Under the pieces are notes generated by a model. The model had not been told where the DNA came from and did no database searches. It saw only the letters and a list, made by a program, of their open reading frames with translations. From an uncultured Thermoanaerobaculia bacterium (GTDB taxonomy: Bacteria; Acidobacteriota; Thermoanaerobaculia; Gp7-AA8), in assembly GCA_964558905.1 (NCBI GenBank), contig CAZLGP010000178.1:44339-108338 (forward strand): 64,000 nt of DNA. The letters run 5' to 3'. Within the stretch, counting starts at the first letter, position 1; each line of letters starts with the position of its first letter. Made by a program: the position numbers and the translations under genes. This document shows, one piece after another, positions 6,780-60,501 of this stretch.

Positions 6780-7002
6780 GACGACCTCCTGCTCGTTCGA
6801 CCCTTTCTGCGGAAGACGTTTTGCGGGCGCGGGTTGTGAAACGGGTGGCTTCGCGCCGTTGTCGCGAATCCTCGAGCGGAGTGTCGGATCGTCTTGATGG
6901 ACGGCCAAACTCCAGACAGCGCGCGTGCGCGCCGACGCCGGTGCCCTTGCCGCTTCGCCAACGACGAGCCTCCAAGGACTCGGGCGTCTGCCCGCGCGGG
7001 CC

Positions 7003-17677: not shown

Positions 17678-17752
17678 GTGACCCGTTGCCCGGGGAGGCC
17701 TACGGGCGACGGGTCACGGGCAACGGGTCACGGGCAACGGGCAACGGGCAAC
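17678..17752. repeat. Tandem-repeat-armed hairpin, family C (heptamers CCCGTTG / GGGTCAC-GGGCAAC), copy C2
   Basis: Short left arm gtgacccgttgcccg (17678-17692). Long right arm of about 7 heptamers (17703-17752). Fills the whole gap between convergent stops at 17677 and 17752. Confidence 0.85.
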
Positions 17753-35573: not shown

Positions 35574-38084
35574 TCAGTGCGAGTGCGCCGCGCCGTGGTC
35601 TCCGATGCGCATGCCATAAAACGACCGGTGCACGAAGAACATCGCGATCAGGAGGAACACGCCCGACAGGACCAGCGTGAGCGTGCCCTGTCCGGCGTTG
35701 GTCATTTCCACCGCGAGCTCGACAGCCAAAAGGCCGAAAAGGGTCGTGAACTTGATGACCGGGTTCATCGCCACCGACGACGTGTCCTTGAACGGATCGC
35801 CGACGGTATCGCCGACGACGACGGCCGCGTGCAGCGGCGTTCCCTTGGCCTTCATCTCCGTCTCGACGATCTTTTTCGCGTTGTCCCACGCGCCGCCGGC
35901 GTTGGCCATGAAGATCGCCTGGTACAGACCGAACAGCGCGATCGAGATGAGGTAGCCGATGAAGAAGAACGGCTCGAAGCAGGCAAATGCGAGCGTCGAG
36001 AAGAACACCACCATGAAGATGTTGAGCATTCCCTTCTGCGCGTACTGGGTGCAGATCTCGACGACCCTTTTCGAGTCTTCGACCGACGCCTTCTCCGCGC
36101 CGATGTCCAGCTTGATGTTGGCCTTGATGAACTCGACCGCGCGATAGGCGCCGGTCGACACGGCCTGCGTGGCCGCGCCGGTGAACCAGTAGATCACCGC
36201 GCCGCCGACGACCAGCCCGAGGAGGAACTGCGGGTGGAGGATGGAGAGCTTCTCGACGTTGATCGTGAGGCCGCGGGTGAGCATGACGATGATCGCGAAG
36301 ATCATCGTCGTGGCGCCGACGACGGCCGTGCCGATGAGCACCGGCTTGGCGGTGGCCTTGAAGGTATTGCCCGCGCCGTCGTTCTCCTCGAGGTAGTCCT
36401 TGCCCTTGTCCCACGCGGGAGTGAAGCCGAAGTCGCGCTGGATCTCTTCATCGATGCCGGGAAGCGTCTCGATGGTCGAGAGCTCGTAGACCGACTGGGC
36501 GTTGTCCGTGACCGGTCCGTACGAGTCGACGGCGATCGTCACCGGACCCATGCCCAGGAAGCCGAACGCGACGAGACCGAAGGCGAAGATGGCCGGCGCG
36601 ATCATGAGCGCGCCGGCGTCGATGGGGAACCTTCCGGCGATCCAGGCCGCGATGCCCATGAGACCGGCGATCGCCAGCCCCATCCAGTACGCGGAGAAGT
36701 TGCCGGCGATGAAGCCAGCGAGGATGTTCAGGGACGCTCCACCTTCCCGTGACGCGGTGACGACCTCGCGCACGTGGCGCGACTCGGTCGAGGTGAACAC
36801 CTTCACGAGCTCGGGGATGATCGCGCCGGCGAGCGTGCCGCAGGTGATGATCGTGGAGAGCTTCCACCACATCGTGGTGTCGCCGCCGAGGCTCGGGATG
36901 AGCACGTACGAGACGGCGTAGGTGACGGCCACCGAGAGGATCGATGTGAGCCACACCAGCGACGTCAACGGAGCCTCGAAGTTCATCTTGTCCGCGGAGC
37001 CGAAGCGCGCCTTGGCGAACGCTTCGTTGATGAAGTACGAGACGGCCGAGGTGATGACCATCAGCACGCGCATGACGAAGATCCAGACCAGGAGCTGGAC
37101 CTGGACGGCCGGATCGGTGACCGCGAGGAGGATGAACGTGATCAGCGCGACGCCGGTGACGCCGTAGGTCTCGAAGCCATCGGCAGTCGGCCCGACGGAG
37201 TCGCCCGCGTTGTCGCCGACGCAGTCCGCGATGACGCCCGGGTTGCGGGCGTCGTCTTCCTTGATGTTGAAGACGATCTTCATCAGATCGCTGCCGATGT
37301 CGGCGATCTTCGTGAAGATGCCGCCGGCGATGCGCAGCGCGGCGGCACCGAGGGACTCGCCGATGGCGAAGCCGATGAAGACCGGGCCGGCGTAGTCACC
37401 CGGCACGAACAGCAGAATCGCCAGCATGATCAGCAGCTCGGTGGAGATGAGGAGCATGCCGATCGACATGCCCGCCTTGAGAGGGATCGAGTAGGTGGGG
37501 AAGGGTTTGCCCCTCAGCGATACGAATGCGGTGCGCGAGTTCGCAAAGGTGTTGATGCGGATGCCGAACCAGGCCACACCGTAGCTGCCGGCGATGCCGA
37601 CGAGCGACGCGATGAGGATGATCACCACGCGCACGGCGTCGAAGTGACGCAGCAGGCCGAAATAGACCACCATGATCGCGCCGATGAAAAGCTCGAGCAG
37701 GAGGATGAACTTGCCCTGGGTGATGAGGTAGGTCTTGCAGGTCTCGTAGATCAGCTCCGAGATCTCGCGCATCGAGCGATGCACGGGCAGCCTCTCGAGC
37801 TGCACATACATCATCAGGCCGAAGAGCAGGCCGAAGACGCAGACGATCAGACCGCCGAGCAGAAGGCGATCGCCGCCCATCCCGAGGAACTGCACGCTGC
37901 CGAGATCCGGCAGCACGAGGTTGGCCTCGGAACGGTGTTCCATCGGCTGGCCCGCGAGCGGCGAGCTTCCCGGCGCGACCGCGGGATCCGCGGACGGATA
38001 CGCCTCCTGCGCGACGGCGACGCCACCGAGCGCGACGATACTGATCAGCGCGACGAGCAGTACGCGCATGGTCGTGGACTTCAT
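35574..38084 (-). CDS. hppA: Membrane-bound pyrophosphatase, divergent long form (836 aa) with Lys at the K+-independence position
   Basis: GGAGG lies 5 nt upstream of ATG 38084. N-terminal signal-like extension. Motifs IADCVGDNAGDSVGPTADGFETY, AGNTFKATAKP (Lys where K+-dependent enzymes have Ala), [33 protein letters not shown]. Confidence 0.9.
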   Translation of the reverse strand: MKSTTMRVLLVALISIVALGGVAVAQEAYPSADPAVAPGSSPLAGQPMEHRSEANLVLPDLGSVQFLGMGGDRLLLGGLIVCVFGLLFGLMMYVQLERLPVHRSMREISELIYETCKTYLITQGKFILLLELFIGAIMVVYFGLLRHFDAVRVVIILIASLVGIAGSYGVAWFGIRINTFANSRTAFVSLRGKPFPTYSIPLKAGMSIGMLLISTELLIMLAILLFVPGDYAGPVFIGFAIGESLGAAALRIAGGIFTKIADIGSDLMKIVFNIKEDDARNPGVIADCVGDNAGDSVGPTADGFETYGVTGVALITFILLAVTDPAVQVQLLVWIFVMRVLMVITSAVSYFINEAFAKARFGSADKMNFEAPLTSLVWLTSILSVAVTYAVSYVLIPSLGGDTTMWWKLSTIITCGTLAGAIIPELVKVFTSTESRHVREVVTASREGGASLNILAGFIAGNFSAYWMGLAIAGLMGIAAWIAGRFPIDAGALMIAPAIFAFGLVAFGFLGMGPVTIAVDSYGPVTDNAQSVYELSTIETLPGIDEEIQRDFGFTPAWDKGKDYLEENDGAGNTFKATAKPVLIGTAVVGATTMIFAIIVMLTRGLTINVEKLSILHPQFLLGLVVGGAVIYWFTGAATQAVSTGAYRAVEFIKANIKLDIGAEKASVEDSKRVVEICTQYAQKGMLNIFMVVFFSTLAFACFEPFFFIGYLISIALFGLYQAIFMANAGGAWDNAKKIVETEMKAKGTPLHAAVVVGDTVGDPFKDTSSVAMNPVIKFTTLFGLLAVELAVEMTNAGQGTLTLVLSGVFLLIAMFFVHRSFYGMRIGDHGAAHSH

Positions 38085-38307: not shown

Positions 38308-40377
<2,070 letters not shown>

Positions 40378-45572: not shown

Positions 45573-46742
45573 ATGACGCGGCTTCGGCCCGCGTCGCGCG
45601 GGTGTACCATGCGGGCCGTGCCGCCCGAGTCCAACCTGAGGAACGTTCTCCGCAACCTTCTGCAATACGGGGACTTAACCTTTCGCGACTTCGTCGAGCT
45701 GGCGCTGTATCACCCTGACTTCGGGTACTACGCGCGACACGAAAATCCGATCGGGAAGGGGGCGGATTACGTCACCGCTCCCACGCTCAGCCCCGTTTTT
45801 TCGTTCGCTCTCGGCAGCCTCGTCCGCGAGTTCGTGCGCCGCAGCGAGGGCGCACTGTGCTCCATCGTGGACATCGGATGTGGCGATGGCGGACTGATCG
45901 AAGCGCTTGCCCGTTGCCCGTTGCCCGTTGCCAGTCCGGTGAGATTTCTCGGAGTCGATCGCGAGCTGGGTCGTGCTGCGCCTGGCGACGCGACGCCTGG
46001 ACGACTCGTCGACTACGTCCGCACGGTCGACGAGCTTCCTCGTGACGGCGCACATCTCTTTCTCTCCAACGAGTTGTATGACGCGTTCCCGTTCGCCCGC
46101 CTGGTCCGTCGCGGCGAGCATGTGCACGAGCTCTGGGTTCGAGAGCGCGATGGAGCTCTCGACTGGACGGAGCGTGAGGCGCCGGCCGCATACGACGACT
46201 ACTTTGCCGATCACCGGATCGAGTTGGCCGAGGGTCAGTTCGCGGACGTCTCGCTGGAGTGGGAGGCGTTTCATGCCGATGTCGTGCGATTTCTGCAGCG
46301 CGGACTGATCGTCACGATCGACTACGGCCATCCTGCAAAGACGCTTTTTCATCCGCGCGCCCGGCGCTTCGGAACCGCGGCCGCCTACGCGGGCCAGCGC
46401 GTGTCGCGCGATCTTCTGGCGAATCCCGGCGAGCAGGATCTCACGGCGCACATCAACTTCAGCGACCTCGAGCGCGCCGGCGAGCGCCACGGCGCGACGA
46501 CGCTCTTCTTCGATCGTCTCGCGAAGTTCCTTCTGTCCCTCGGCATCGCCGAGCACGAGCTCTTCCGTCCCTTGCACGAGATGACCATCGAGAATCCGGA
46601 ACAGGGGCTGGCGCTCAGGGAGGCGCGGGAGGAAGCGCGGCGGCTCGTGCTGCCTGATGGGATCGGCGAGGAGATGCGTGTGCTGGTCCAGGCGAAGAAC
46701 GTCGAGCTCGCCGGCTGGTCATTCCAGACGTGGCCCTCGTAG
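45573..46742 (+). CDS. SAM-dependent methyltransferase, MidA/NDUFAF7 (DUF185) family
   Basis: FVELALYHPDFGYYA...GKGADYVTAPTLSPVFSFALG, SAM motif IVDIGCGDGGL, FLSNELYDAFP, DLTAHINFSDL, all typical of the MidA family. Alternative start at 45609. Confidence 0.8.
   Translation: MTRLRPASRGCTMRAVPPESNLRNVLRNLLQYGDLTFRDFVELALYHPDFGYYARHENPIGKGADYVTAPTLSPVFSFALGSLVREFVRRSEGALCSIVDIGCGDGGLIEALARCPLPVASPVRFLGVDRELGRAAPGDATPGRLVDYVRTVDELPRDGAHLFLSNELYDAFPFARLVRRGEHVHELWVRERDGALDWTEREAPAAYDDYFADHRIELAEGQFADVSLEWEAFHADVVRFLQRGLIVTIDYGHPAKTLFHPRARRFGTAAAYAGQRVSRDLLANPGEQDLTAHINFSDLERAGERHGATTLFFDRLAKFLLSLGIAEHELFRPLHEMTIENPEQGLALREAREEARRLVLPDGIGEEMRVLVQAKNVELAGWSFQTWPS
45907..45932. repeat. Family C heptamer array (TTGCCCG x3) inside the MidA CDS, single arm
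   Basis: ttgcccgttgcccgttgcccgttgcc. Three 7-nt units make 21 nt, so the frame is kept. Encodes LARCPLPVA directly after the GCGDGG SAM-binding loop. Confidence 0.8.
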
Positions 46743-48669: not shown

Positions 48670-49029
48670 ATGGCCAACTACTCAGTGTTGCTGGTAGCCG
48701 TGCTCATCGTCCTCTCCGTCCCGATTTTGGCCCTGTTCATCATCGCCCCGCTGGTGCGGGCCTCGCGAGTGAACAAGGTGAAACTCGAGCCGTATGAATG
48801 CGGCATCGCTCCCACCTCCCTGGCCTTCGATCACCGCTTCTCGGTACGCTACTTCCTCATCGCGGTCCTGTTCATCATCTTCGATGTCGAAACGGTGTTC
48901 CTCTTCCCCTGGGCGATCCGCTTCAAACAGCTCGGCTGGTTCGGGGCCATCGAGATGGCGATCTTTCTCGCGATCCTGCTGATCGGTTACTTCTACGCCT
49001 GGAAGAGGAAGGTCCTTTCATGGGTCTGA
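48670..49029 (+). CDS. nuoA: NADH-quinone oxidoreductase subunit A
   Basis: Three TM segments. KLEPYECGI and [21 protein letters not shown] are the NuoA/ND3 signature. Confidence 0.95.
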
Positions 49030-50045
49030 TCGAGGACCGCTTCGAGTCGAACGTTCTCACCACGAACGTCGACAAGTTCTTCAACTGGGCCCGCAAATCT
49101 TCCCTCTGGCCGATGCAGTTCGGCCTGGCCTGCTGCGCCATCGAGATGATGGCCGTCCTCGATCCCCGTCACGACATGGCCCGCTTCGGCGCCGAGGTCT
49201 TCCGCGCCACGCCGCGCCAGGCGGACCTGATGATCGTCTCCGGCACGGTCACCGAGAAGATGGCGCCGATCGTCCGCCGGCTGTGGGACCAGATGCCGGA
49301 GCCGAAGTGGGTCATCGCGATGGGCTCGTGCGCCACGTGCGGCGGTCCGTACGACACGTACGCCGTCACGCAGGGCGTCGATCGTCTCATCCCCGTCGAC
49401 GTCTACATCCCCGGATGTCCTCCACGTCCCGAGGCGCTGATCTGGGGACTGATCGAGCTGCAGAAGAAGATCGAGAAGATGCACATCCTGCGGAAGGGCG
49501 GCGAGGCGTATGACTTCGCCCGGGCCGCGGTGCGCGATTCACTCCGCCCGGCGCATGAGGGTCCGGCGCTCCGCGCCGAGCAGGCGGCGGCGACGCAGCT
49601 CAAGCAGGCGCCGATCTCGGGGGTGAAGCGCGCGCCCGCGCCGCCCTCGGCGCCCAAGCCGGCACCCGCTCCCGCCGCCGCGGTCGCGGAAGCATCCACG
49701 GTGTCGGAGGCGGAGATCCAGCAGGCCGCGGCTCCGGAGATCCCGCTCGAGCAGGAGGCCGAGACGGGGGCCTCTCCCGCCGTGCCATTCCATCGCGACG
49801 ACCTCACGCTTCCCGAGCGCATGGAGATGGCCAAGGAGATCGGCGACAAGTGGGAGACGCGGCTCTTCGCCGCCATGGCGCAGACGGACTGCGGCGCGTG
49901 CGGATGGGACTGCGAAGGCTACGCGAACGCGCTCGCCACCGCCGAGACCGACGATATCTCATTGTGCGTCCCCGGGGAGTCGGAGACGCTGGACATGCTG
50001 AAAGCACTGATGGAGGAGAAAGGGAAGAGCTACTCGGGAGGATAG
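49020..50045 (+). CDS. nuoB: NADH-quinone oxidoreductase subunit B with a ~180-aa C-terminal extension ending in a 4-Cys domain
   Basis: ATG 49020 overlaps nuoA by 10 nt. Core motifs [23 protein letters not shown] (cluster N2 ligands) fall within aa 1-160. A Pro/Ala-rich linker follows, then [35 protein letters not shown] (Cys291, Cys294, Cys298, Cys316). Confidence 0.9.
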
Positions 50046-50139
50046 TTGGATCGTTGCCCGTTGCCAGTTGCCCGTTACCAGTGCTGTTTTCGCCCGCGCG
50101 AGAAACGCACTGGTAACTGGTAGCTGGGAACCAGCAACT
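50044..50139. repeat. Family C hairpin, copy C4, in the nuoB-nuoC junction
   Basis: agttggatcgttgcccgttgccagttgcccgttaccagtgc (50044-50084) pairs imperfectly with gcactggtaactggtagctgggaaccagcaact (50107-50139). The loop has its own small stem (gttttcgc / gcgagaaac). Confidence 0.75.
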
Positions 50140-50141
50140 CA

Positions 50142-50966
50142 ATGTCAGAGCAAACTCCCCCAAGCCCAGCGCCGCCACCGGCCGCACCCGCCGGCCGCAG
50201 CGTCGACGAACTGAAGCGCGACCCGCTCGTCGCGGCTGCCGTCAGTCGTGTCGACGATGCGGTCCTCGGCGCGAAGGAGCTCGCCGGCGAGATCACGCTC
50301 TTCTTCGACAGAGACCGCATCGTCGAAGTGGCCCGCGCCTTCAAGGACGCCGGCTTCGTTTATCTGGTCGATCTCTGCGGCGTCGACTATTCGAAGTATC
50401 CGGGCCACACCGGTCTGCGGTTCAGCGTCTCGTACACCCTGTACTCCTTCCAGCAGAACGCACGCGTCCGCCTGCGTGTCTGGACCGATGAGAAGTGGCC
50501 CGTTCCCTCGGTGACGTCGATCTGGCGCACGGCGAACTGGCACGAGCGCGAGACGTACGACATGCTCGGCATCGAGTTCTCCGGCCATCCGAACCTCGAG
50601 CGCATCCTGATGTGGGAAGGCTTCAACGGCCATCCCCTCCGCAAGGACTTCCCCGTCCGCGGCATCGACACCGGCGCGCGCATCTACCCCGAGGTCTTCC
50701 CCGAGGGTGGTGGACCGAAGGCAGGATCGACCGGCAAGGACGTGAAAGACGTCAATCTCTACAAGGGCGAATGGAAGCGATACGGCCAGTGGCCCGTCGC
50801 CCAGATCGGCGGCGGAGGAAACGGCGGCGCAAAAGCGCCTGCACCCGCCCCGAAGCCCGCGCCGAAGCCGGTTGCAGAGGCTCCCGCGGCGCCGAAGCCG
50901 GTGGCCGCCGCCCCCGCCGAGGCTGCGCCGCCCACCGAGCCAGATGTGGAGGAGGAGACCGAATGA
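50142..50966 (+). CDS. nuoC: NADH-quinone oxidoreductase subunit C with Pro/Ala-rich C-terminal tail
   Basis: WRTANWHERETYDMLGIEFSGHPNLERILM...HPLRKDFP is the NuoC/30-kDa signature. Tail: GGAKAPAPAPKPAPKPVAEAPAAPKPVAAAPAEAAPPTE. Confidence 0.95.
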   Translation: MSEQTPPSPAPPPAAPAGRSVDELKRDPLVAAAVSRVDDAVLGAKELAGEITLFFDRDRIVEVARAFKDAGFVYLVDLCGVDYSKYPGHTGLRFSVSYTLYSFQQNARVRLRVWTDEKWPVPSVTSIWRTANWHERETYDMLGIEFSGHPNLERILMWEGFNGHPLRKDFPVRGIDTGARIYPEVFPEGGGPKAGSTGKDVKDVNLYKGEWKRYGQWPVAQIGGGGNGGAKAPAPAPKPAPKPVAEAPAAPKPVAAAPAEAAPPTEPDVEEETE

Positions 50967-50976
50967 AGCCTCTTCT

Positions 50977-51009
50977 CCCGCCAACCGCCAACCGCCAACC
51001 GCCAACCGG
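50977..51009. repeat. Family D heptamer array (GCCAACC x4), single arm, in the nuoC-nuoD junction
   Basis: cccgccaaccgccaaccgccaaccgccaaccgg. No complementary arm seen nearby. Followed by GGGAGG (51012-51017) and the nuoD GTG at 51024. Confidence 0.85.
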
Positions 51010-51023
51010 CCGGGAGGTGGCTC

Positions 51024-52139
51024 GTGTTTGACGTCCATGAAATGGAGGTCAACTTCGGTCCGCAGCATCCGTCGACGCACGGTGTGCTGCGCGTCATCCT
51101 GAAGATCGACGGAGAGCGCATCATCGACGCAAAGCCGATCATCGGCTATCTCCATCGCGGCACGGAGAAGCTCTTCGAGCACATGGCCTATCCGCAGTGC
51201 ATCCCCCACACGGACCGGATGGACTACGTCGCCTCGGCCACGAACAACCTCGGCTTCGTCGAGGCGGTCGAGAAGCTGATGGGGATCACCGCGAACATCC
51301 CGAAGCGAGCGCAGCTCATGCGCGTGATGTTGTCTGAGCTGCAGCGCCTCTCGTCGCACCTGTTGTGGCTCGCGACGCACGCCATCGACCTCGGGGCCAT
51401 GACGCCGTTCTTCTACACGTTCCGCGAGCGCGAGCAGATCCTCGATTTCTTCGAGTCCTATTGCGGCGCGCGTCTCACGCTGAACTGCATGCGCATCGGC
51501 GGCATGCCGGACGATCTGCCGCACGGCTGGCTCGAGGACGTCGAGGCCTTCGTCGACAAGTTCGACGCCTGCATGGACGAGTACGAGGCCCTGTTGACGA
51601 ACAACCGCATCTGGAAGAAGCGGACCATCGGCATCGGCGTGATCTCTCCCGAGGAGGCCATCGACTGGGGCATCACCGGACCGCCCCTGCGCGGGTCGGG
51701 CGTCGAGTGGGATCTCCGTCGCGCTCAGCCGTACGAGTGCTATCCGGAACTGCAGTTCGAGATCCCGATCGGCAAGAACGGCGATACCTACGATCGATAT
51801 CTCGTCCGCATGGAAGAGATGCGGCAGTCCAACCGCATCCTCAAGCAGTGCTTCCCGCTCGTCCGCGCGACGCCGGAAGGCGACATCAAGGCGAAGATCT
51901 CCAAGGTCATTCGTCCGCCGGAAGGCGAGGTCTATCACTCGATCGAGTCGCCCAAGGGTGAGCTCGGCTACTACATCGTCAGCGACGGCAAGACCCAGAA
52001 CGCGTATCGCTGTCACGTGCGGCCGCCCTCTTTCGTCAATCTGCAGGCGCTGCCGGCGATGGCGAAGGGGCACCTCGTGTCGGATCTCGTCGCCCTGATC
52101 GGGACGATCGACATCGTCCTGGGGGAGGTGGACCGGTGA
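51024..52139 (+). CDS. nuoD: NADH-quinone oxidoreductase subunit D
   Basis: GTG start with GGGAGG 6 nt upstream. NFGPQHPSTHGVLRV, GYLHRGTEK and C-terminal DIVLGEVDR. Confidence 0.95.
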   Translation: MFDVHEMEVNFGPQHPSTHGVLRVILKIDGERIIDAKPIIGYLHRGTEKLFEHMAYPQCIPHTDRMDYVASATNNLGFVEAVEKLMGITANIPKRAQLMRVMLSELQRLSSHLLWLATHAIDLGAMTPFFYTFREREQILDFFESYCGARLTLNCMRIGGMPDDLPHGWLEDVEAFVDKFDACMDEYEALLTNNRIWKKRTIGIGVISPEEAIDWGITGPPLRGSGVEWDLRRAQPYECYPELQFEIPIGKNGDTYDRYLVRMEEMRQSNRILKQCFPLVRATPEGDIKAKISKVIRPPEGEVYHSIESPKGELGYYIVSDGKTQNAYRCHVRPPSFVNLQALPAMAKGHLVSDLVALIGTIDIVLGEVDR

Positions 52140-52144
52140 GGCGA

Positions 52145-52247
52145 AGTGCTGAGTGCTGTGTGCTGAGTGCTGAGTCCCGCCCACCGGGGCGCGAATCGAC
52201 CACGGCTCGGAGAGCCACTCAGCACTCAGCACTCAGCACCCAGCACT
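52145..52247. repeat. Tandem-repeat-armed hairpin, family A, copy A3, in the nuoD-nuoH junction (opposite orientation to A1/A2)
   Basis: agtgctgagtgctgtgtgctgagtgctgagt (52145-52175). The loop starts cccgcccacc. Right arm actcagcactcagcactcagcacccagcact (52217-52247). Confidence 0.9.
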
Positions 52248-52275
52248 GCACGGCCGAGGCGATGGAGGCGAGTTC

Positions 52276-53412
52276 TTGAACGAAGCGTTGATGACATACC
52301 TGATCTGGCCGGTCGCGAAGTACATCGCGGCGTTCGTGGTCGTCCTCACCATCGTGGCGGTGATGACCTGGATCGAGCGCCGCGGGTTGGGCCTGATGCA
52401 GGCCCGGCTCGGTCCGAACCGCGTCGGCCCGCAGGGTCTCCTTCAGATCATCGCCGATCCGGTGAAGCTGCTCCTCAAGGAAGACATCCTCCCCGCGCGG
52501 GCCGAGAAGGTCGCGTACTTCCTCGGACCGATGCTGCCGATCGTTCCGGCCCTGATCGTGTGGTGTCTGATTCCGTTCGGCCCGCCGCCGGATTTCGCGG
52601 TGACGCGGGTGAACGTGGCCCTGCTGCTCATCCTGGCCCTCACCTCCACGTCGGTCTACGGCATCATCCTCGGCGGCTGGGCATCGAACAACAAGTACTC
52701 GCTGATGGGCGGGCTGCGCTCGGCCGCGCAGGCGATCTCCTACGAGGTGCCGTTCGGGCTGTCGGTCATCGGCGTGCTGATGATCACCGGCAGCCTCGAT
52801 CTCGTGCAGATCGTGCGGTATCAGGAGGCCAACGGCTGGAACCTCCTCACGCAGATCGTGGCCGCGTTCATCTTCTTCGTGTCGATGAACGCGGAGAGCA
52901 ACCGCACGCCGTTCGATCTTCCTGAAGCGGAGTCGGAGCTCGTCGCCGGCTACCACACCGAGTATTCGGGGATGAAGTTTGCGTTCTTCATGCTCTCCGA
53001 ATACGCGGCCATGCTCGTCAACTCCGCCCTTCTGGTGACGCTGTTCTTCGGAGGGTGGTCGCTGGGGATGTTCGGCTTTGGGCTGACCACAGAAGTCATG
53101 GCCGGTATGGGCATCATGGGTGGCCTGCTCGGGGTGCTGATCTTCCTCGGCAAAGTGATGTTCTTCATGGTCGTCTTCGTCTGGTTCCGGGCGACCTTCC
53201 CCCGGTTCCGCTTCGATCAGCTCATGGACCTCGGCTGGAAGTTCATGATCCCCCTCGCGCTGGCGAACATCTTCGTCACCGGGATCTTCATTCTCGCTGG
53301 CCAGGAGCGGCTGATGACATGGGTCGGCCTCGGCACGATCGCCCTCATCGCGTTCTACCTCTTCCGGCCGAAACGCGTACCGGCGAAGCAGAAGGTGGCT
53401 CATGCAAGTTGA
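52276..53412 (+). CDS. nuoH: NADH-quinone oxidoreductase subunit H
   Basis: TTG start with GGAGG 7 nt upstream. ERRGLGLMQARLGPNRVGPQGLLQ, ESNRTPFDLPEAESELVAGYHTEYSGMKF. Confidence 0.95.
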   Translation: MNEALMTYLIWPVAKYIAAFVVVLTIVAVMTWIERRGLGLMQARLGPNRVGPQGLLQIIADPVKLLLKEDILPARAEKVAYFLGPMLPIVPALIVWCLIPFGPPPDFAVTRVNVALLLILALTSTSVYGIILGGWASNNKYSLMGGLRSAAQAISYEVPFGLSVIGVLMITGSLDLVQIVRYQEANGWNLLTQIVAAFIFFVSMNAESNRTPFDLPEAESELVAGYHTEYSGMKFAFFMLSEYAAMLVNSALLVTLFFGGWSLGMFGFGLTTEVMAGMGIMGGLLGVLIFLGKVMFFMVVFVWFRATFPRFRFDQLMDLGWKFMIPLALANIFVTGIFILAGQERLMTWVGLGTIALIAFYLFRPKRVPAKQKVAHAS

Positions 53413-53965
53413 GTATCCGAAGCCGAGGTGGTCGGAGAAGTTCCTGCTCCTGGACCTTCTCGAGGGTCTGAAGACGACGCTACGCGAGCTCTTCAAGCCG
53501 AAAGTGACCATCCGCTATCCGGAAGAGCGGATGGAGCCGGTGGACCGGTTCCGGGGCATGTTCAAGTTCTCCTATGACCGTTGCATCGCCTGCAAGCTCT
53601 GCGCGGTGGCCTGTCCGATCGACATCATCTACATCGACGTCCACGACGACATGATCGAAGAGGGCGGAAAGAAGAAGAAGGTCAAGGTCCTCGACCGCTA
53701 CGACATCGACGTGAAGCGCTGCATGTTCTGCTCGCTCTGCGAAGAAGCGTGTCCCACGAAACCGAAATCGATCTGGCTCACCACCAAGACCTACGAGTTG
53801 GCGAGCTACGACCGCAACGATCTCTATTTCAACATGCAGCAGCTCGAGTATTGGGACGACCGTCCTAAGTACACCGGGCTGCCGGACGACGAAAAGCCGG
53901 CCATCGACGATGCCCGGCTGCTCTCGGATGGGAGCAAGGATGAAGGAGGAAGGATGAAGGGATGA
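53402..53965 (+). CDS. nuoI: NADH-quinone oxidoreductase subunit I (2x[4Fe-4S])
   Basis: CIACKLCAVACP and CMFCSLCEEACP. Overlaps nuoH by 11 nt. The last ~10 codons (SKDEGGRMKG) lie in the family G repeat arm. Confidence 0.95.
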   Translation: MQVEYPKPRWSEKFLLLDLLEGLKTTLRELFKPKVTIRYPEERMEPVDRFRGMFKFSYDRCIACKLCAVACPIDIIYIDVHDDMIEEGGKKKKVKVLDRYDIDVKRCMFCSLCEEACPTKPKSIWLTTKTYELASYDRNDLYFNMQQLEYWDDRPKYTGLPDDEKPAIDDARLLSDGSKDEGGRMKG

Positions 53966-54036: not shown

Positions 54037-54717
54037 ATGGACAGCGTCACTTCACAGATGCCCCTCCTCGTGTTCCTGGTGATCGGGACGATCGCCGTCG
54101 CGTCGTCGATTCTCGTCGTGGCGATGCGCAATCCCGTTCACTCCGCGCTCTTCCTGCTGCTGACGTTCCTCTGCGTGGCGGTGCTCTTCGTCATCAAGTC
54201 CGCGGAGTTCGTCGCGGCCGTGCAGGTGCTCGTCTATGCGGGCGGCATCATGGTCCTGTTTCTGTTCGTGGTGATGCTGATCAACTACCGGCATCTGCCC
54301 GAGGAGCGGGTGATGTCGAAGGTGTGGCTCGGCGGAATCGGCGTCGGCCTGGCGGTCTTCGTCCTCTTCTTCTTCCTCGTGCGCAACGGTACCTACGCCG
54401 AACAGGTGCCGGACGCGGCGAAGAAGCTCGGCACGGTGACCGAGACGTATCTCACGGAGCACCCGAGCGACCCGAGCAAGATGGTCCGGCGCACCCGCGA
54501 GCGCGAGAACCGGAACTCCGAGGCTCTGGGGATGGCCCTGTATCGCGACTATCTCGTGCCGTTCGAGGTCGTATCGCTGTTCCTGCTCGTGGCCATGATC
54601 GGCGCGATCGTCATCGGCAAGCGGGAGTTGTCCGCCGAGGAGGAGGAGGCCACGCCGCACTTCATCCTCGAGAGGGCGGAAGTGGAGAAGGAAGTGAAGG
54701 AGGCCATGAATGCCTAG
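54037..54717 (+). CDS. nuoJ: NADH-quinone oxidoreductase subunit J
   Basis: NPVHSALFLLLTFLCVAVLFV...AEFVAAVQVLVYAGGIMVLFLFVVML is the NuoJ/ND6 signature. Confidence 0.9.
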   Translation: MDSVTSQMPLLVFLVIGTIAVASSILVVAMRNPVHSALFLLLTFLCVAVLFVIKSAEFVAAVQVLVYAGGIMVLFLFVVMLINYRHLPEERVMSKVWLGGIGVGLAVFVLFFFLVRNGTYAEQVPDAAKKLGTVTETYLTEHPSDPSKMVRRTRERENRNSEALGMALYRDYLVPFEVVSLFLLVAMIGAIVIGKRELSAEEEEATPHFILERAEVEKEVKEAMNA

Positions 54718-54723
54718 CCGCGG

Positions 54724-54829
54724 GTCAACTCTGAGCCGCGCAGCGGGGAAGAGTCAGGTGAGCCCACTGGAGGCCCGTGGTTTTGCACCTCGTGAGGGCT
54801 CCCTTGATCCTTCGCTTCGCTCAGGATTG
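54724..54829. repeat. Family E long hairpin element, copy E2, in the nuoJ-nuoK junction
   Basis: Left arm gtcaactctgagccgcgcagcggggaagagtcaggtgagccc. Right arm gagggctcccttgatccttcgcttcgctcaggattg. Followed by GGGGAGG and the nuoK ATG at 54843. Confidence 0.85.
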
Positions 54830-54842
54830 CGGGGAGGCTCCC

Positions 54843-55145
54843 ATGCCTAGCACCGCCCAATACCTGATGCTCTCCGGCACTCTGTTCGCGGTCGGTCTGG
54901 TCGGTGTGATCGTCCGCCGGAACATGATCACGGTGCTGATGTGCATCGAGCTGATGCTCAATGCCGTGAACATCAATCTCGTGGCCTTCGCCCATCGCCT
55001 GGCGGACCTGCAGGGGCAGGTCTTCACCGTGTTCGTGATCACGATCGCGGCCGGCGAGGCGGCGGTCGGCCTGGCCATCATCATCCAGTTGTACCGGATG
55101 CGGTCGACGATCAACGTGGACGAGGTCAAGACGCTCCATGGATAG
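54843..55145 (+). CDS. nuoK: NADH-quinone oxidoreductase subunit K
   Basis: From ATG 54843: [40 protein letters not shown]...[13 protein letters not shown] is the NuoK/ND4L signature. Confidence 0.95.
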
Positions 55146-55153
55146 CCGCCGAA

Positions 55154-55256
55154 ATACTCTGAAGAGCGAAGCGAAGAAGAGTCAGCGGAGCCCCCGCGTG
55201 GCCTGTGGCTCGGGTGTCGAGAGGGCCCCCTTGATCCTTCGCTTCGCTCAGGATTG
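55154..55256. repeat. Family E long hairpin element, copy E3, in the nuoK-nuoL junction
   Basis: Left arm atactctgaagagcgaagcgaagaagagtcagcggagccccc. Right arm gagggcccccttgatccttcgcttcgctcaggattg, ending 3 nt before the nuoL ATG at 55260. Confidence 0.85.
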
Positions 55257-55259
55257 ACC

Positions 55260-57416
<2,157 letters not shown>

Positions 57417-57433: not shown

Positions 57434-59032
57434 ATGGATCCGATACTGAACATCATTACCTACATTCCGCTGGTCGGCGCGCTGGTGATCCTGTTCTTCG
57501 TGAACAAGAACAGCACGCGCGCGATCCGGATGATGGCCACGGGAACGGCGGTCGTGGATTTCATCGTCTCGCTCTATCTGTGGTTCAACTTCGATCCGAA
57601 CAAGCTGTGGCAGTTCGAGTTCAAGGTGTCGTGGATCCCATCCCTTGGCGTGGACTATCACTTCGGTGTGGACGGAATCGCCATCCTGCTGATCCTCATG
57701 ACGACCTTCATGGGGATCATCGCCATCGTCTCCTCCTACAGCGCCATCCATCACCGCGAGAAAGAGTATTACGTGCTCCTACTCATGCTGCAGACCGGCA
57801 TGATCGGCACGTTCTGCGCGCTGGACTTCTTCCTCTTCTACGTGTTCTGGGAAATCATGCTCGTGCCGATGTACTTCATCATCGGCATCTGGGGCGGCGC
57901 TCGGAAGCTCTACGCCGCGATCAAGTTCTTCCTGTATACGCTCGCCGGATCGGTGCTCATGCTGCTCTCGATCCTGGCGTTGTTCTTCTTCAATGACGGC
58001 GGCATCCCCTTCCTCAACATCGCCGGACTCGGGAACCCCGGCACCTTCAGCGTGCTCCAGTTCCACGAGGTCGGCCACCTGATCCCGGCGGCATTGCAGT
58101 TCTGGATCTTCCTCGGCTTCTTCTTCGGCTTCGCCATCAAGGTGCCGATGTTCCCGTTCCATACGTGGCTGCCCGACGCCCACGTCGAGGCGCCCACGGC
58201 CGGCTCGATCATCCTCGCCGCCGTTCTCCTCAAGATGGGGACCTACGGGTTCGTGCGGTTCGCGCTGCCGATCCTTCCGGACGCGACGAAGCAGCTTCTC
58301 GTGCCGGTGGCCGTGTTGTCAGTCATCGGGATCATCTACGGCGCGCTCGTGTCGCTCGTCCAGAAGGACATGAAGAAGCTCGTCGCGTACTCCTCGGTGT
58401 CGCACCTCGGATTCGTCATGCTCGGCCTGTTCGCGCTCAATCCCGCCGGCATCCAGGGATCGGTCATTCAGATGATCAATCACGGCATCTCCACCGGCGC
58501 GCTCTTCCTTCTCGTCGGCATGATCTACGAGCGCCGGCATACGAGGATGATCGCGGACTATGGCGGCCTCGCCAAACAGATGCCCATGTATGCGACGCTG
58601 TTCCTCATTGCGGCCCTATCCTCGATGGGCTTGCCGGGGCTGAATGGGTTCATCGGCGAGTTCACGATCCTGCTCGGCACCGCGAGCTCCAGCGCCTACG
58701 GCACGATCGCCTACGCCGTGTTCGCCGCGGTCGGCATCGTCCTCGGCGCCGCGTATCTCCTCTGGCTCTATCAGCGCGTTTTTTGGGGGCCGATCGACAA
58801 TCCGGCGAATGCCGTCCTGAAGGACGTCAATCGGCGCGAGCTCGGAATGATGCTCGCTCTAATCGTCCTGATGGTGTGGATCGGCGTCTACCCGAAGCCG
58901 CTCTTCGATTTCATTGCAAAGCCGGTCGACTACGTCGTGCAGAAGGTCGATCCCGGATACTTCGAGAGGCAGCCGGTCACGTACCCGGCGTCGCCGGCTC
59001 CCGTTGAGCACCACGAGGTCGCCGCGAAATGA
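57434..59032 (+). CDS. nuoM: NADH-quinone oxidoreductase subunit M
   Basis: From ATG 57434: FYVFWEIMLVPMYFIIGIWGG, KVPMFPFHTWLPDAHVEAPTAGSIILAAVLLKMGTYG. Confidence 0.95.
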   Translation: MDPILNIITYIPLVGALVILFFVNKNSTRAIRMMATGTAVVDFIVSLYLWFNFDPNKLWQFEFKVSWIPSLGVDYHFGVDGIAILLILMTTFMGIIAIVSSYSAIHHREKEYYVLLLMLQTGMIGTFCALDFFLFYVFWEIMLVPMYFIIGIWGGARKLYAAIKFFLYTLAGSVLMLLSILALFFFNDGGIPFLNIAGLGNPGTFSVLQFHEVGHLIPAALQFWIFLGFFFGFAIKVPMFPFHTWLPDAHVEAPTAGSIILAAVLLKMGTYGFVRFALPILPDATKQLLVPVAVLSVIGIIYGALVSLVQKDMKKLVAYSSVSHLGFVMLGLFALNPAGIQGSVIQMINHGISTGALFLLVGMIYERRHTRMIADYGGLAKQMPMYATLFLIAALSSMGLPGLNGFIGEFTILLGTASSSAYGTIAYAVFAAVGIVLGAAYLLWLYQRVFWGPIDNPANAVLKDVNRRELGMMLALIVLMVWIGVYPKPLFDFIAKPVDYVVQKVDPGYFERQPVTYPASPAPVEHHEVAAK

Positions 59033-60501
59033 CCTGGAGCGACGTCGTCTACCTCCTGCCGGAGATCGTGATTGCGATCGGTGCATGCGTGCTGCTCATC
59101 GCGCCGGTGACGGGATTCCGGCGATTCGCGTCGGCGAAGTGGACGATGCTCGCGCTGCTGGGGATCACGGCCGTGGCGGTCGTCGTCTGTTCCCGGGTGG
59201 TGGTGGATCTCCCCCAGACCGCGGGCTTTGCCTCGATGTTCGTGCTCGACGGCTTTGCGATCTTCTTCAAGCTCCTCTTCATCGTCACCATCGCCATGGT
59301 CACGCTGCTGTCGGATGACTTTTTCCGCGGTACGCGGTACTCGCCGTGGGAGTACTACTCGCTGCTGGCGTTTGCCCTCTGCGGCATGTTGTTCATGGTC
59401 AGCGGCATTCATCTGGCGTCGATCTACGTCGGCCTCGAGCTGATGTCACTGTCGAGCTACATCCTGGCCGGATACTTCAAGAACGAGCAGAAGAGCACCG
59501 AGGCGGCGATGAAATACTTCATCCTCGGGGCGGTGAGCTCGGCGATTCTGCTCTACGGCATCTCCCTCATCTACGGCGTCACCGGGTCGCTGAGTCTCGT
59601 GGACATCGCCAACTCGATGTCGACGCTGATGACGAACGACGCGCTGATGTTCGGGATCATGCTTCTCGGCGCCGGACTGTGCTTCAAGATCGCGGCCGTC
59701 CCGTTTCACGTCTGGACGCCCGATGTCTATGAAGGTGCGCCGACGCCGGTGACCGCTTTCCTATCGACCGCGTCCAAGGCCGCGGCGTTCGCGATCTTCG
59801 CGCGCATCTTCTATGTCGGGCTGCATCACTTCCACCTCGACTGGCAGTACGTCCTGGCGGCGATCGCTGCCCTGTCGATGATCCTCGGCAACCTCGCGGC
59901 GATCACCCAGGACAGCGTCAAGCGCATGCTCGCGTACTCGTCGATCGCCCACGCCGGATACGTCCTGCTGGGCATCCTCGCCGTCAGCGAGATGGGCCTG
60001 TACGGCATCCTCGTCTACTCCGTCGTCTACGTGTTCGCGACGCTCGGCATCTGGGCCACGGTGCTGATGCTCGAGCGGCACGAGTATGCGGGCGAGGCGG
60101 TGAACGACTTCGACGGTCTGCACAAGCGGGCACCGTTTTACGCGTTTGCGATGGTCGTCTTTCTCCTCTCGCTGGGCGGCATCCCCCCGACGGCGGGCTT
60201 CATCGGCAAGTACTTCCTCTTCTATGCCGCGGTCGGCGCGGGTTTCGGCTGGCTGGCGATCATCGCGGTTCTGATGTCCGCCGTCTCGGTGTTCTTCTAC
60301 TTCCGCCTGGTGATGGCGATGTACCTCAAAGAGGGACGCGAGGCGGTGGTGACAGGCGGTGGAGCGCTGAAGTTCGTGGTCGCGGTGGCGCTCGTCGTCA
60401 CGCTGTTCTTCGGCGTCCTGCCGTCGCTCCTGATCGACCAGGCGAAAGACTCCGGCGGTTGGGTGGCCTCGCGCGTGGCCGCGGTCGTCCCCGGGCAATA
60501 G
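59029..60501 (+). CDS. nuoN: NADH-quinone oxidoreductase subunit N
   Basis: ATGA overlap with nuoM. GLELMSLSSYILAG, KIAAVPFHVWTPDVYEGAPTPVTAFLS. Confidence 0.95.
   Translation: MTWSDVVYLLPEIVIAIGACVLLIAPVTGFRRFASAKWTMLALLGITAVAVVVCSRVVVDLPQTAGFASMFVLDGFAIFFKLLFIVTIAMVTLLSDDFFRGTRYSPWEYYSLLAFALCGMLFMVSGIHLASIYVGLELMSLSSYILAGYFKNEQKSTEAAMKYFILGAVSSAILLYGISLIYGVTGSLSLVDIANSMSTLMTNDALMFGIMLLGAGLCFKIAAVPFHVWTPDVYEGAPTPVTAFLSTASKAAAFAIFARIFYVGLHHFHLDWQYVLAAIAALSMILGNLAAITQDSVKRMLAYSSIAHAGYVLLGILAVSEMGLYGILVYSVVYVFATLGIWATVLMLERHEYAGEAVNDFDGLHKRAPFYAFAMVVFLLSLGGIPPTAGFIGKYFLFYAAVGAGFGWLAIIAVLMSAVSVFFYFRLVMAMYLKEGREAVVTGGGALKFVVAVALVVTLFFGVLPSLLIDQAKDSGGWVASRVAAVVPGQ

Follow-up and report, generated by a model that had tools for sequence, protein, structure and literature searches.

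Photosynthetic NDH-1 works with 11 core subunits and without NuoEFG, and electrons enter it from an iron–sulfur protein at the side of NuoI (NdhI), where diffusible [2Fe-2S] ferredoxin is captured by NdhS, NdhV, and NdhO. The same puzzle of what substitutes for NuoEFG is posed by archaeal Fpo (FpoF or ferredoxin), by the Campylobacter enzyme (NuoX/NuoY together with flavodoxin), and by the 11-subunit enzymes of Desulfitobacterium and Dehalococcoides. Many bacteria encode such an 11-subunit complex I, and how it is fed with electrons, and by which direct donor, is an acknowledged open question (PMC11238625). Here we describe a stretch of 64,000 nucleotides (hereafter the window; 65% G+C) from an uncultured, soil-type Thermoanaerobaculia bacterium of the Acidobacteriota (assembly GCA_964558905.1, contig CAZLGP010000178.1, positions 44,339 to 108,338), which carries an 11-gene nuo operon in the order nuoA-B-C-D-H-I-J-K-L-M-N, and in particular the long C-terminal extension of its NuoB, which ends in a compact domain with four cysteines (the tail). 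On balance, we favor the view that this tail is a tethered and mobile [4Fe-4S] electron-input domain, in effect a covalent ferredoxin that would feed cluster N6a of a complex I lacking NuoEFG. Both the PF04060 domain family, to which the tail is assigned below, and complex I without NuoEFG were already known; what is new here is the occurrence of the domain on NuoB, NuoC, and NuoI, of which no description was found in the literature searched (NuoB extensions, complex I of Thermoanaerobaculia, and RnfB-like fusions); such a domain is not reported for the Fpo, Campylobacter, Desulfitobacterium, and Dehalococcoides enzymes either.

Three described systems carry homologous domains. The FdI domain of RnfB (PF04060; approximately positions 42–91 of model TIGR01944) is a [4Fe-4S] domain of high mobility, held by flexible linkers on either side, which has been proposed to act as a swinging electron shuttle and which resembles the N-terminal domain of the corrinoid iron–sulfur protein (CFeSP) with a root-mean-square deviation (rmsd) of 2.2 Å and 21% identity (PMC9588780). 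The NuoB tail is homologous to FdI as a small four-Cys domain, helical by prediction, and is likewise flexibly linked, but it is C-terminal, whereas FdI lies between an N-terminal membrane helix and ferredoxin domains with two [4Fe-4S] clusters and delivers its electrons to RnfA/E. The N-terminal domain of the CFeSP large subunit (AcsC/CfsA), a member of the same Pfam family, is also a flexibly linked low-potential cluster domain for electron input, although what it serves is the reductive activation of a corrinoid rather than a respiratory chain. By sequence, the tail is closest to the PRK06214-type proteins, in which an Fe-S domain is joined to a flavoprotein module of the ferredoxin-NADP+ reductase type (FeS-FNR), in some cases with a sirohaem sulfite reductase hemoprotein in front (SiRHP-FeS-FNR). 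These share 45–52% identity with the tail over approximately 80 aa, the PWHD...ERM helix before the Cys motif, and an Ala/Pro linker, but their domain is placed N-terminal to the FAD/NADPH module or between this module and the sirohaem reductase. In mechanism, the NuoB tail would thus resemble the RnfB FdI shuttle and the CFeSP N-terminal domain, and in logic it would resemble the ferredoxin-dependent NDH-1, which differs in relying on a diffusible [2Fe-2S] ferredoxin instead of a predicted [4Fe-4S]-type domain held covalently on NuoB. The lipoyl arm of the 2-oxoacid dehydrogenase E2 subunit is a mechanistic analogue, in which a small carrier domain moves between separate active sites on a flexible, Ala/Pro-rich linker; its fold and cofactor are unrelated, and no homology is claimed.

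In the window, nuoB is a single open reading frame of 341 codons with neither a stop nor a change of frame across core, linker, and tail. The G+C content at third codon positions in this frame is 0.73–1.00 along the whole gene and 0.83–0.97 over linker and tail, and both alternative frames are interrupted by stops. The exact protein is also present in an NCBI-derived collection, where it is encoded on a contig of 118 kb. PF01058 matches residues 38–146 (E 2e-29; 102 bits against a cutoff of 27), and the NCBIfam NuoB model NF005012 is matched with 251 bits (cutoff 116). The original prediction, made from the letters of the window alone, had described a NuoB core ending near residue 160 with all ligands of cluster N2, and these ligands are indeed present as C38, C39, C104, and C133 within CC...GSC...PGCPP motifs. 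Judged by its sequence, the protein is a bona fide NuoB encoded in an 11-subunit complex I-like operon.

Column conservation, computed on an alignment of 75 full-length NuoB orthologues, divides the rest of the protein into three parts (Table 1). The Ala/Pro linker that had been predicted to follow the core directly is found from residue ~201 onward (Ala 30% and Pro 18% over residues 200–255), but the preceding residues do not belong to it, as their mean column conservation is 0.86 and their identity to relatives (0.92), with many invariant columns, is close to the core value. Since its conservation nearly equals that of the core, this post-core extension is best read as structured protein, which probably lies against the complex and forms the foot from which the tether extends. 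The linker itself is free in sequence but constrained in length: the distance from residue 160 to the start of the tail match (tblastn) is 74–106 aa overall and 87–106 aa in 75 of 77 loci, and in the AlphaFold2 model of full-length NuoB its predicted local distance difference test (pLDDT) stays below 50. The terminal domain opens with a conserved FH..L.L.ERM helix and has a highly conserved surface (0.90), and its cysteines C291, C294, C298, and C316 lie in the spacing C-x2-C-x3-C-x17-C at nt 49890–49967, exactly as predicted. As a separate observation on NuoB, the best-scoring NuoB model, NF011394 (PRK14819), has 264 positions, of which the window protein matches positions 14–162 only; this partial match suggests that another NuoB subfamily bears a different C-terminal extension of ~100 aa, and C-terminal extensions of NuoB may be a recurrent theme.

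The identity of the four-Cys domain was approached through profile hidden Markov models (HMMs) and structure prediction. PF04060, the family named in the original prediction, matches the isolated tail with 24.9 bits (E 1.7e-5) and thus passes its gathering score of 23; other carriers of the domain score in the same range (six proteins at 25.2–27.8 bits and four at 23.2–23.9 bits). The NCBIfam RnfB models match the tail at E values around 1e-8 (1e-7 to 1e-9), and PRK06214 (NF004859, "sulfite reductase subunit alpha") matches it at E 7e-25 with 87.6 bits over positions 67–147 of 539. All four cysteines are invariant in 38 aligned full-length NuoB relatives, and likewise in 17 aligned tail domains, NuoC copies included, while the C-x2-C-x3-C start of the motif is present in 74 of 74 NuoB tails taken from species loci. 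The AlphaFold2 model of the isolated tail consists of four helices with a pLDDT of 92.8. Its sole low-rmsd match in the PDB, found with Foldseek, is the CFeSP large subunit (9fzy_F), with an rmsd of 2.4 Å over 51 columns, a TM score of 0.45, and 22% identity at a non-significant E value of 6.1; in rmsd and identity, this mirrors the published relation between RnfB FdI and CFeSP (PMC9588780). The anticipated similarity to Fe-S domains was thus borne out at significant levels by the HMMs (PF04060, RnfB, and PRK06214) and not by structure comparison, where it stayed non-significant. From these data, the tail is taken as a member of the PF04060 superfamily, within which it represents a distinct subfamily of tight conservation, recognizable by the pattern PWHD..L...ERM.LA....[11 protein letters not shown][WY]DC.GYA.A...GE..D..LC.PG..ET, and we infer that it binds one [4Fe-4S] cluster.

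Identity with the full proteins behind the best models was considered and rejected. The RnfB models (TIGR01944/NF003475) are matched at positions 42–91 only, with 35.1 bits against a cutoff of 68.7, and neither a membrane helix nor ferredoxin domains are present; the PRK06214 score stands against a cutoff of 432 bits, and the window NuoB contains no FNR module. A phmmer search with the single tail sequence against PDB sequences gave no relevant match.

The fusion is not confined to the window. Scanning one genome per species (GTDB) with a profile of the tail gave 288 confirmed stretches, and the best 80 of these, all from Thermoanaerobaculia or Acidobacteriota metagenome-assembled genomes, were analyzed as loci. 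Relatives with 83–97% identity support the placement of the window in this class. Core, linker, and tail form one uninterrupted reading frame in 75 of the 77 loci in which the NuoB core is on the contig, and the two others are one and the same frameshift-ridden long-read contig (L001, identical to L082). A search with the full-length protein yielded at least 120 distinct clusters at 90% identity, 334–351 aa long and with 100% query cover, the majority of which carry both PF01058 and PF04060 as precomputed domains; the databases name these fusion proteins plain NuoB or NuoI. The reading frame thus proved to be free of frameshifts in the window, as originally read, and in 75 of the 77 loci, and the comparison across species indicates that the fusion is real and under selection.

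The alternative that the tail is a separate small gene had been prompted by the first protein search, which returned only PF04060 proteins of 55–177 aa without a NuoB domain. It is ruled out by the finding that the tail is in frame with the core, without a stop, in the relative locus L002 as well as in the 75 of 77 loci; the short tail-only proteins are contig-end fragments, gene calls from internal starts, or products of the frameshifted contig L001. Two annotation artefacts were met in this connection. The 177-aa "(Fe-S)-binding protein" of NCBI was called from an internal start within a continuous NuoB reading frame (L002 8001–8534), and in JGI the label "sulfite reductase (NADPH) flavoprotein alpha-component" has been attached by mistake to fragments of the tail, although the protein lacks an FNR module.

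A second copy of the domain is found at the C-terminus of NuoC in 42 of 81 Thermoanaerobaculia loci (for example, L001 8287–9564), where it follows a linker of 33–38 aa in 36 of the 42. This copy shares ~66% identity with its NuoB counterpart in that genome, and its Cys motif usually reads CTAC, where the NuoB copy reads CGAC. The window NuoC ends, after its core, in a 59-aa Gly/Ala/Pro-rich tail (50787–50963) without the Cys domain. Since the NuoC copy is absent in most of the closest relatives of the window and present in most distant loci, the comparison suggests that it was lost secondarily in the window lineage, and the stub on the window NuoC is probably a remnant of the lost domain. In another lineage, NuoC with the domain is encoded in a nuoA-B-C operon (P0106). 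The domain is furthermore attached C-terminally to NuoI in at least 120 protein clusters of 293–400 aa, mostly with PF04060 precomputed, and the clusters among them that are named by organism are all from Verrucomicrobiota. Here the operon order is nuoA-B-C-D-I*-H-J-K-L-M-M-N, with I* for the fused NuoI (L087 5750–6727; L089 10001–11026; L090 7315–8340), and the fusion operons encode four antiporter-like subunits, that is, the "2M" type, compared with the usual three (NuoL, NuoM, and NuoN) in the window. The domain thus appears to have been recruited repeatedly to neighboring Q-module subunits, namely NuoB, NuoC, and NuoI. The linker of the NuoI fusions also holds a conserved PFNxEQRxWL-like motif, which is presumably found at the N-terminus of FeS-FNR proteins as well.

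Outside complex I, a domain search over 1.84 billion representatives returned 628 proteins, and host domains were examined for the 141 top representatives. The commonest identified host is a CysJ-type FAD/NADPH module (45 of 141), and 85 have no recognized partner domain. One protein of 984 aa (P0176) is a triple fusion of sirohaem sulfite/nitrite reductase, Fe-S domain, and FNR, and in another locus (L091 462–4002) an FeS-FNR gene lies directly downstream of an NIR_SIR gene. In these FNR and sirohaem reductase systems, the domain is 45–60% identical to the NuoB tail and sits at the position of the CysJ flavodoxin or of the plant ferredoxin, which points to an intramolecular one-electron carrier. 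Sulfite-reductase-like flavoproteins had been named in the original prediction as possible bearers of the same domain, and the PRK06214 match and the FNR-fused representatives agree with this. The combination of FeS-FNR and sirohaem reductase looks like an apparently uncharacterized type of NADPH-sulfite/nitrite reductase, in which a PF04060-like domain would replace the CysJ flavodoxin. The search also brought up a family of ~250 aa with a Pfam-less N-terminal domain and the four-Cys domain at its C-terminus (P0089, P0092, and P0103; L083 10001–10783), whose gene adjoins a CitMHS_2 transporter gene in a context other than nuo, and a protein made of three tandem copies of the four-Cys domain (P0086).

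Every operon with the domain that was examined lacks nuoEFG. The gap between nuoD and nuoH is 136 nt in the window and 0–273 nt in 68 Thermoanaerobaculia loci, so that nuoH directly after nuoD leaves no room for nuoEFG, and in Verrucomicrobiota the fused nuoI* comes directly after nuoD, with nuoH next in line, again without nuoEFG. The lack of nuoE, nuoF, and nuoG that had been read from the window thus agrees with the gene order by Pfam, and the tail, for which co-occurrence with such operons had been raised as a question, is found in none that has nuoEFG. No NuoE/F/G-type gene is present among the Pfam-scanned, coding-quality reading frames of the 64-kb window, and tblastn with a reconstructed E. 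coli NuoF query gave no NuoF-like match in the window or within ±10 kb of 88 loci. These results indicate that nuoEFG is absent from the operons and their ±10 kb surroundings in the stretches covered. A tblastn search for a CysJ-type FNR and a sirohaem reductase gave nothing in 1.27 Mb of related loci (±10 kb, 88 loci) plus the window, and Pfam scans of the coding-quality window reading frames revealed no obvious electron-donor partner. Nothing suggestive of NdhS, NdhV, or NdhO appeared in the general Pfam scans of the window genes, which included no search aimed at NdhS-like proteins.

In complex I without NuoEFG, N6a in NuoI is the cluster nearest to the surface, as follows from the complex I structures of Thermus thermophilus and others; NuoC, NuoD, and NuoI make up the face normally covered by NuoG, and the C-terminus of NuoB lies lower, near the membrane. 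The linkers, ~35 aa from NuoC and ~95 aa from NuoB, grow with the expected distance to this NuoG-facing surface. Fusions on three subunits round one face, these linker lengths, the mobility of the RnfB FdI domain, and the carrier role in sulfite reductase systems together point to a mobile electron-input domain. In such a mechanism, the tether of ~100 residues would begin with the conserved anchoring segment and continue as the flexible Ala/Pro linker, on which the oxidized domain could swing out and be reduced by a low-potential donor in the cytoplasm, possibly a ferredoxin-reducing oxidoreductase, a soluble ferredoxin or flavodoxin, or an FNR-type flavoprotein. Once reduced, the domain would dock next to NuoI, where NuoG shields the surface in the canonical enzyme, and single electrons would pass from the domain to N6a, N6b, N2, and finally menaquinone, coupled to proton pumping. 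The proposal of NuoI as the acceptor follows from the architecture of complex I and from the NuoI fusions of Verrucomicrobiota. In loci with the NuoC copy and its ~35-aa linker, two arms might share one site or relay electrons to each other. An electron-entry function, which the original prediction had already put forward as plausible, is the best-supported role that we infer for the tail, and the comparative data strengthen it.

Several observations nevertheless weigh against the tail as a mobile electron-input domain. Against whole NuoB, PF04060 (aa 288–318) scores 21.2 bits, just under the gathering score, and the Cys spacing of x3/x17 departs from the canonical x4/x16, as found in RnfB FdI, over an equal span of 26 residues. 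The best match in a profile search against PDB chains, RnfB of A. vinelandii (8ahx_B), is non-significant at E 0.5; in this weak HMM alignment, all four tail cysteines pair with RnfB cysteines at a shift of one residue. Foldseek with the tail model found no significant solved Fe-S domain in the PDB (best E 4.8), and the AlphaFold2 model of full-length NuoB, built on 38 close homologues, is poor (pLDDT 46) and yields no information on docking or on the post-core extension. The FNR-like and NuoF-like searches of the window and of ±10 kb around 88 loci linked no gene for a candidate donor to the operon, and the loss of the NuoC copy in the window lineage implies that two arms are at least partly dispensable. 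The non-canonical spacing and the lack of a significant structural match to solved Fe-S proteins could even be taken to mean that the cysteines bind zinc or act in regulation, redox sensing, or assembly. However, the domain is homologous in sequence to others whose [4Fe-4S] clusters are established or strongly inferred, it associates with redox subunits only, and its subfamily is also placed between FNR and sirohaem reductase modules, a position that calls for an electron carrier, so that a role outside electron transfer is hardly credible.

Granted an electron-carrying cluster, its mobility, its partner, and the direction of flow could still differ from those proposed. The domain might be permanently docked on NuoI, NuoC, or NuoD, where, as a static extra cluster in place of N4/N5 of NuoG, it would lengthen the chain by one and let diffusible ferredoxin deliver electrons at an exposed surface; the long linker would then be mere topological slack that bridges the distance from the NuoB C-terminus near the membrane. 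Fusions to three subunits around one region, the short and uniform linker of NuoC, and the highly conserved domain surface would fit such a fixed site; nevertheless, in genomes that have a copy on NuoB and another on NuoC, a single fixed site cannot hold the two, linkers rich in Ala/Pro are, as is established, typical of swinging arms such as those of E2 lipoyl domains, and the homologous Rnf domains are mobile and unresolved in cryo-electron microscopy (PMC9588780), which makes permanent docking unlikely. Reverse flow, in which the proton-motive force drives menaquinol electrons up to the tethered [4Fe-4S] cluster for the reduction of ferredoxin-dependent enzymes, would agree with the general reversibility of complex I and with the low potential at which the PF04060-type clusters of RnfB and CFeSP are established to work (PMC9588780). 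Quinol-to-ferredoxin reverse transport has been proposed for the "2M" complex I without EFG in Nitrospirales (PMC10579370, citing Chadwick 2018), and the four antiporter-like subunits of the Verrucomicrobiota NuoI-fusion operons make reverse flow more attractive there. The window operon, however, has the ordinary three antiporter-like subunits, and its Pfam-scanned neighbors give no sign of ferredoxin-dependent CO2 fixation. Thermoanaerobaculum aquaticum, as far as is known the sole cultured member of the class, is a heterotroph, given which a forward respiratory role is simpler, and reverse flow seems rather improbable. It could also be argued that the tail is an adaptor for an NAD(P)H-oxidizing module encoded elsewhere, either NuoEFG-/HoxEFU-like or an FNR-type flavoprotein, to which it would provide the interface or a connecting cluster in an enzyme that still depends on NAD(P)H, since CysJ-type FAD/NADPH modules are joined in cis to the nearest kin of the domain (PRK06214 and the 45 of 141 representatives) and the absence of nuoEFG covers the operon and its ±10 kb surroundings. 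This is distinctly improbable, as a NuoEFG module normally needs no such adaptor and the searches of the 64-kb window and of ±10 kb around the operon in the 88 loci revealed neither an FNR-like nor a NuoF-like gene.

The coordinates of the operon and of the parts of NuoB are collected in Table 1. The identities of nuoC, nuoD, and nuoH to nuoN rest on Pfam, the nuoB start codon overlaps the stop codon of nuoA, and an ATP-synthase a-subunit gene lies downstream of nuoN.

Table 1. Genes of the nuo operon, its first hairpin spacer, and the parts of NuoB in the window
Feature	Position (nt)	Strand	Details and basis
nuoA	48670–49029	+	119 aa; open reading frame; synteny by tblastn in 80 loci; PF00507 on syntenic genes of relatives
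nuoB	49020–50045	+	341 aa; ATG at 49020, TAG at 50043–50045; PF01058
NuoB core	49020–49490 (aa 1–157)	+	column conservation 0.96; N2 ligands
NuoB post-core extension	49491–49619 (aa ~158–200)	+	mean column conservation 0.86; ends ...GVKR
NuoB Ala/Pro linker	49620–49784 (aa ~201–255)	+	column conservation 0.58; composition
NuoB PF04060-type four-Cys domain	49785–50024 (aa 256–335)	+	column conservation 0.77–0.90; HMMs; AlphaFold2
nuoB–nuoC spacer with long hairpin	50045–50141	+	RNA minimum free energy; outside the protein feature
nuoC	50142–50966	+	274 aa; PF00329
nuoD	51024–52139	+	371 aa; PF00346, E 1e-104
nuoH	52276–53412	+	PF00146; directly after nuoD
nuoI	53402–53965	+	187 aa; Fer4 families; two [4Fe-4S], clusters N6a/N6b
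nuoJ	54037–54717	+	Pfam
nuoK	54777–55145	+	Pfam
nuoL	55254–57416	+	Pfam
nuoM	57434–59032	+	Pfam; start position checked
nuoN	59029–60501	+	Pfam

Several spacers of the operon contain short tandem repeats. The nuoB–nuoC spacer forms a hairpin with arms of tandem GTTGCCC/GTTACCA heptamers (−57 kcal/mol, z −7.5), the nuoD–nuoH spacer (52140–52275) one with four copies of GTGCTGA (−77.9 kcal/mol, z −5.1), and the nuoK–nuoL spacer (55146–55253) one with CGAAG-type repeats (−48.5 kcal/mol, z −2.8); the nuoC–nuoD spacer (50967–51023) has four copies of CCGCCAA without a hairpin, and akin heptamer runs also occur at 45907–45935, 17730–17752, and 9106–9155. These hairpins could be elements like repetitive extragenic palindromes or signals for mRNA processing or stability. 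Upstream of nuoA, a gene with PF02636 (Methyltransf_28; 45573–46742, plus strand) is syntenic in relatives (L001 5648–6778; L002 6064–7155). Mitochondrial NDUFAF7/MidA, by which the NuoD homologue is methylated on an arginine while complex I is assembled, belongs to this family, and the position of the gene near nuoA hints at a conserved bacterial maturation factor of complex I. Further upstream of the operon lies a divergent pair of H+-pyrophosphatase genes (35577–38084, minus strand, 836 aa; 38308–40377, plus strand, 689 aa), which is also present in L002, and a reading frame of 1898 aa at 1215–6908 (minus strand) has good coding statistics and no Pfam match at E <= 1e-5.

Beyond the window, our results raise the possibility that tethered PF04060-type domains are a general input module of complex I without NuoEFG, gained in separate events on NuoB, NuoC, and NuoI and in two phyla or more. 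As covalent ferredoxin arms, they would connect the proton-pumping core straight to cytoplasmic oxidoreductases with no diffusible carrier in between, with FNR-type NADPH flavoproteins, which bear the nearest kin of the tail as their own Fe-S domain, as possible partners and with reverse operation, yielding low-potential reductant, perhaps in some lineages; we regard this generalization as tentative, and as open to more doubt than the reading of the window tail as an electron-input domain. How an 11-subunit complex I receives its electrons may accordingly be answered within the subunits themselves, by a ferredoxin-like domain on NuoB, NuoC, or NuoI, the subunits that surround the chain of clusters where it is exposed. 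If this is true, the arms would name the electron entry route of the 11-subunit enzyme and add a third way of electron input to those by NuoEFG and by ferredoxin bound to NdhS, with a defined domain, a defined docking surface, and natural one-arm and two-arm variants available for comparison. The fusions also expose systematic gaps in annotation, being labeled plain NuoB or NuoI, with fragments passing as sulfite reductase flavoprotein. In sulfite reductase systems, the same domain takes the part of an internal ferredoxin, providing an example of the shuffling of redox modules between complex I and other electron-transfer enzymes.

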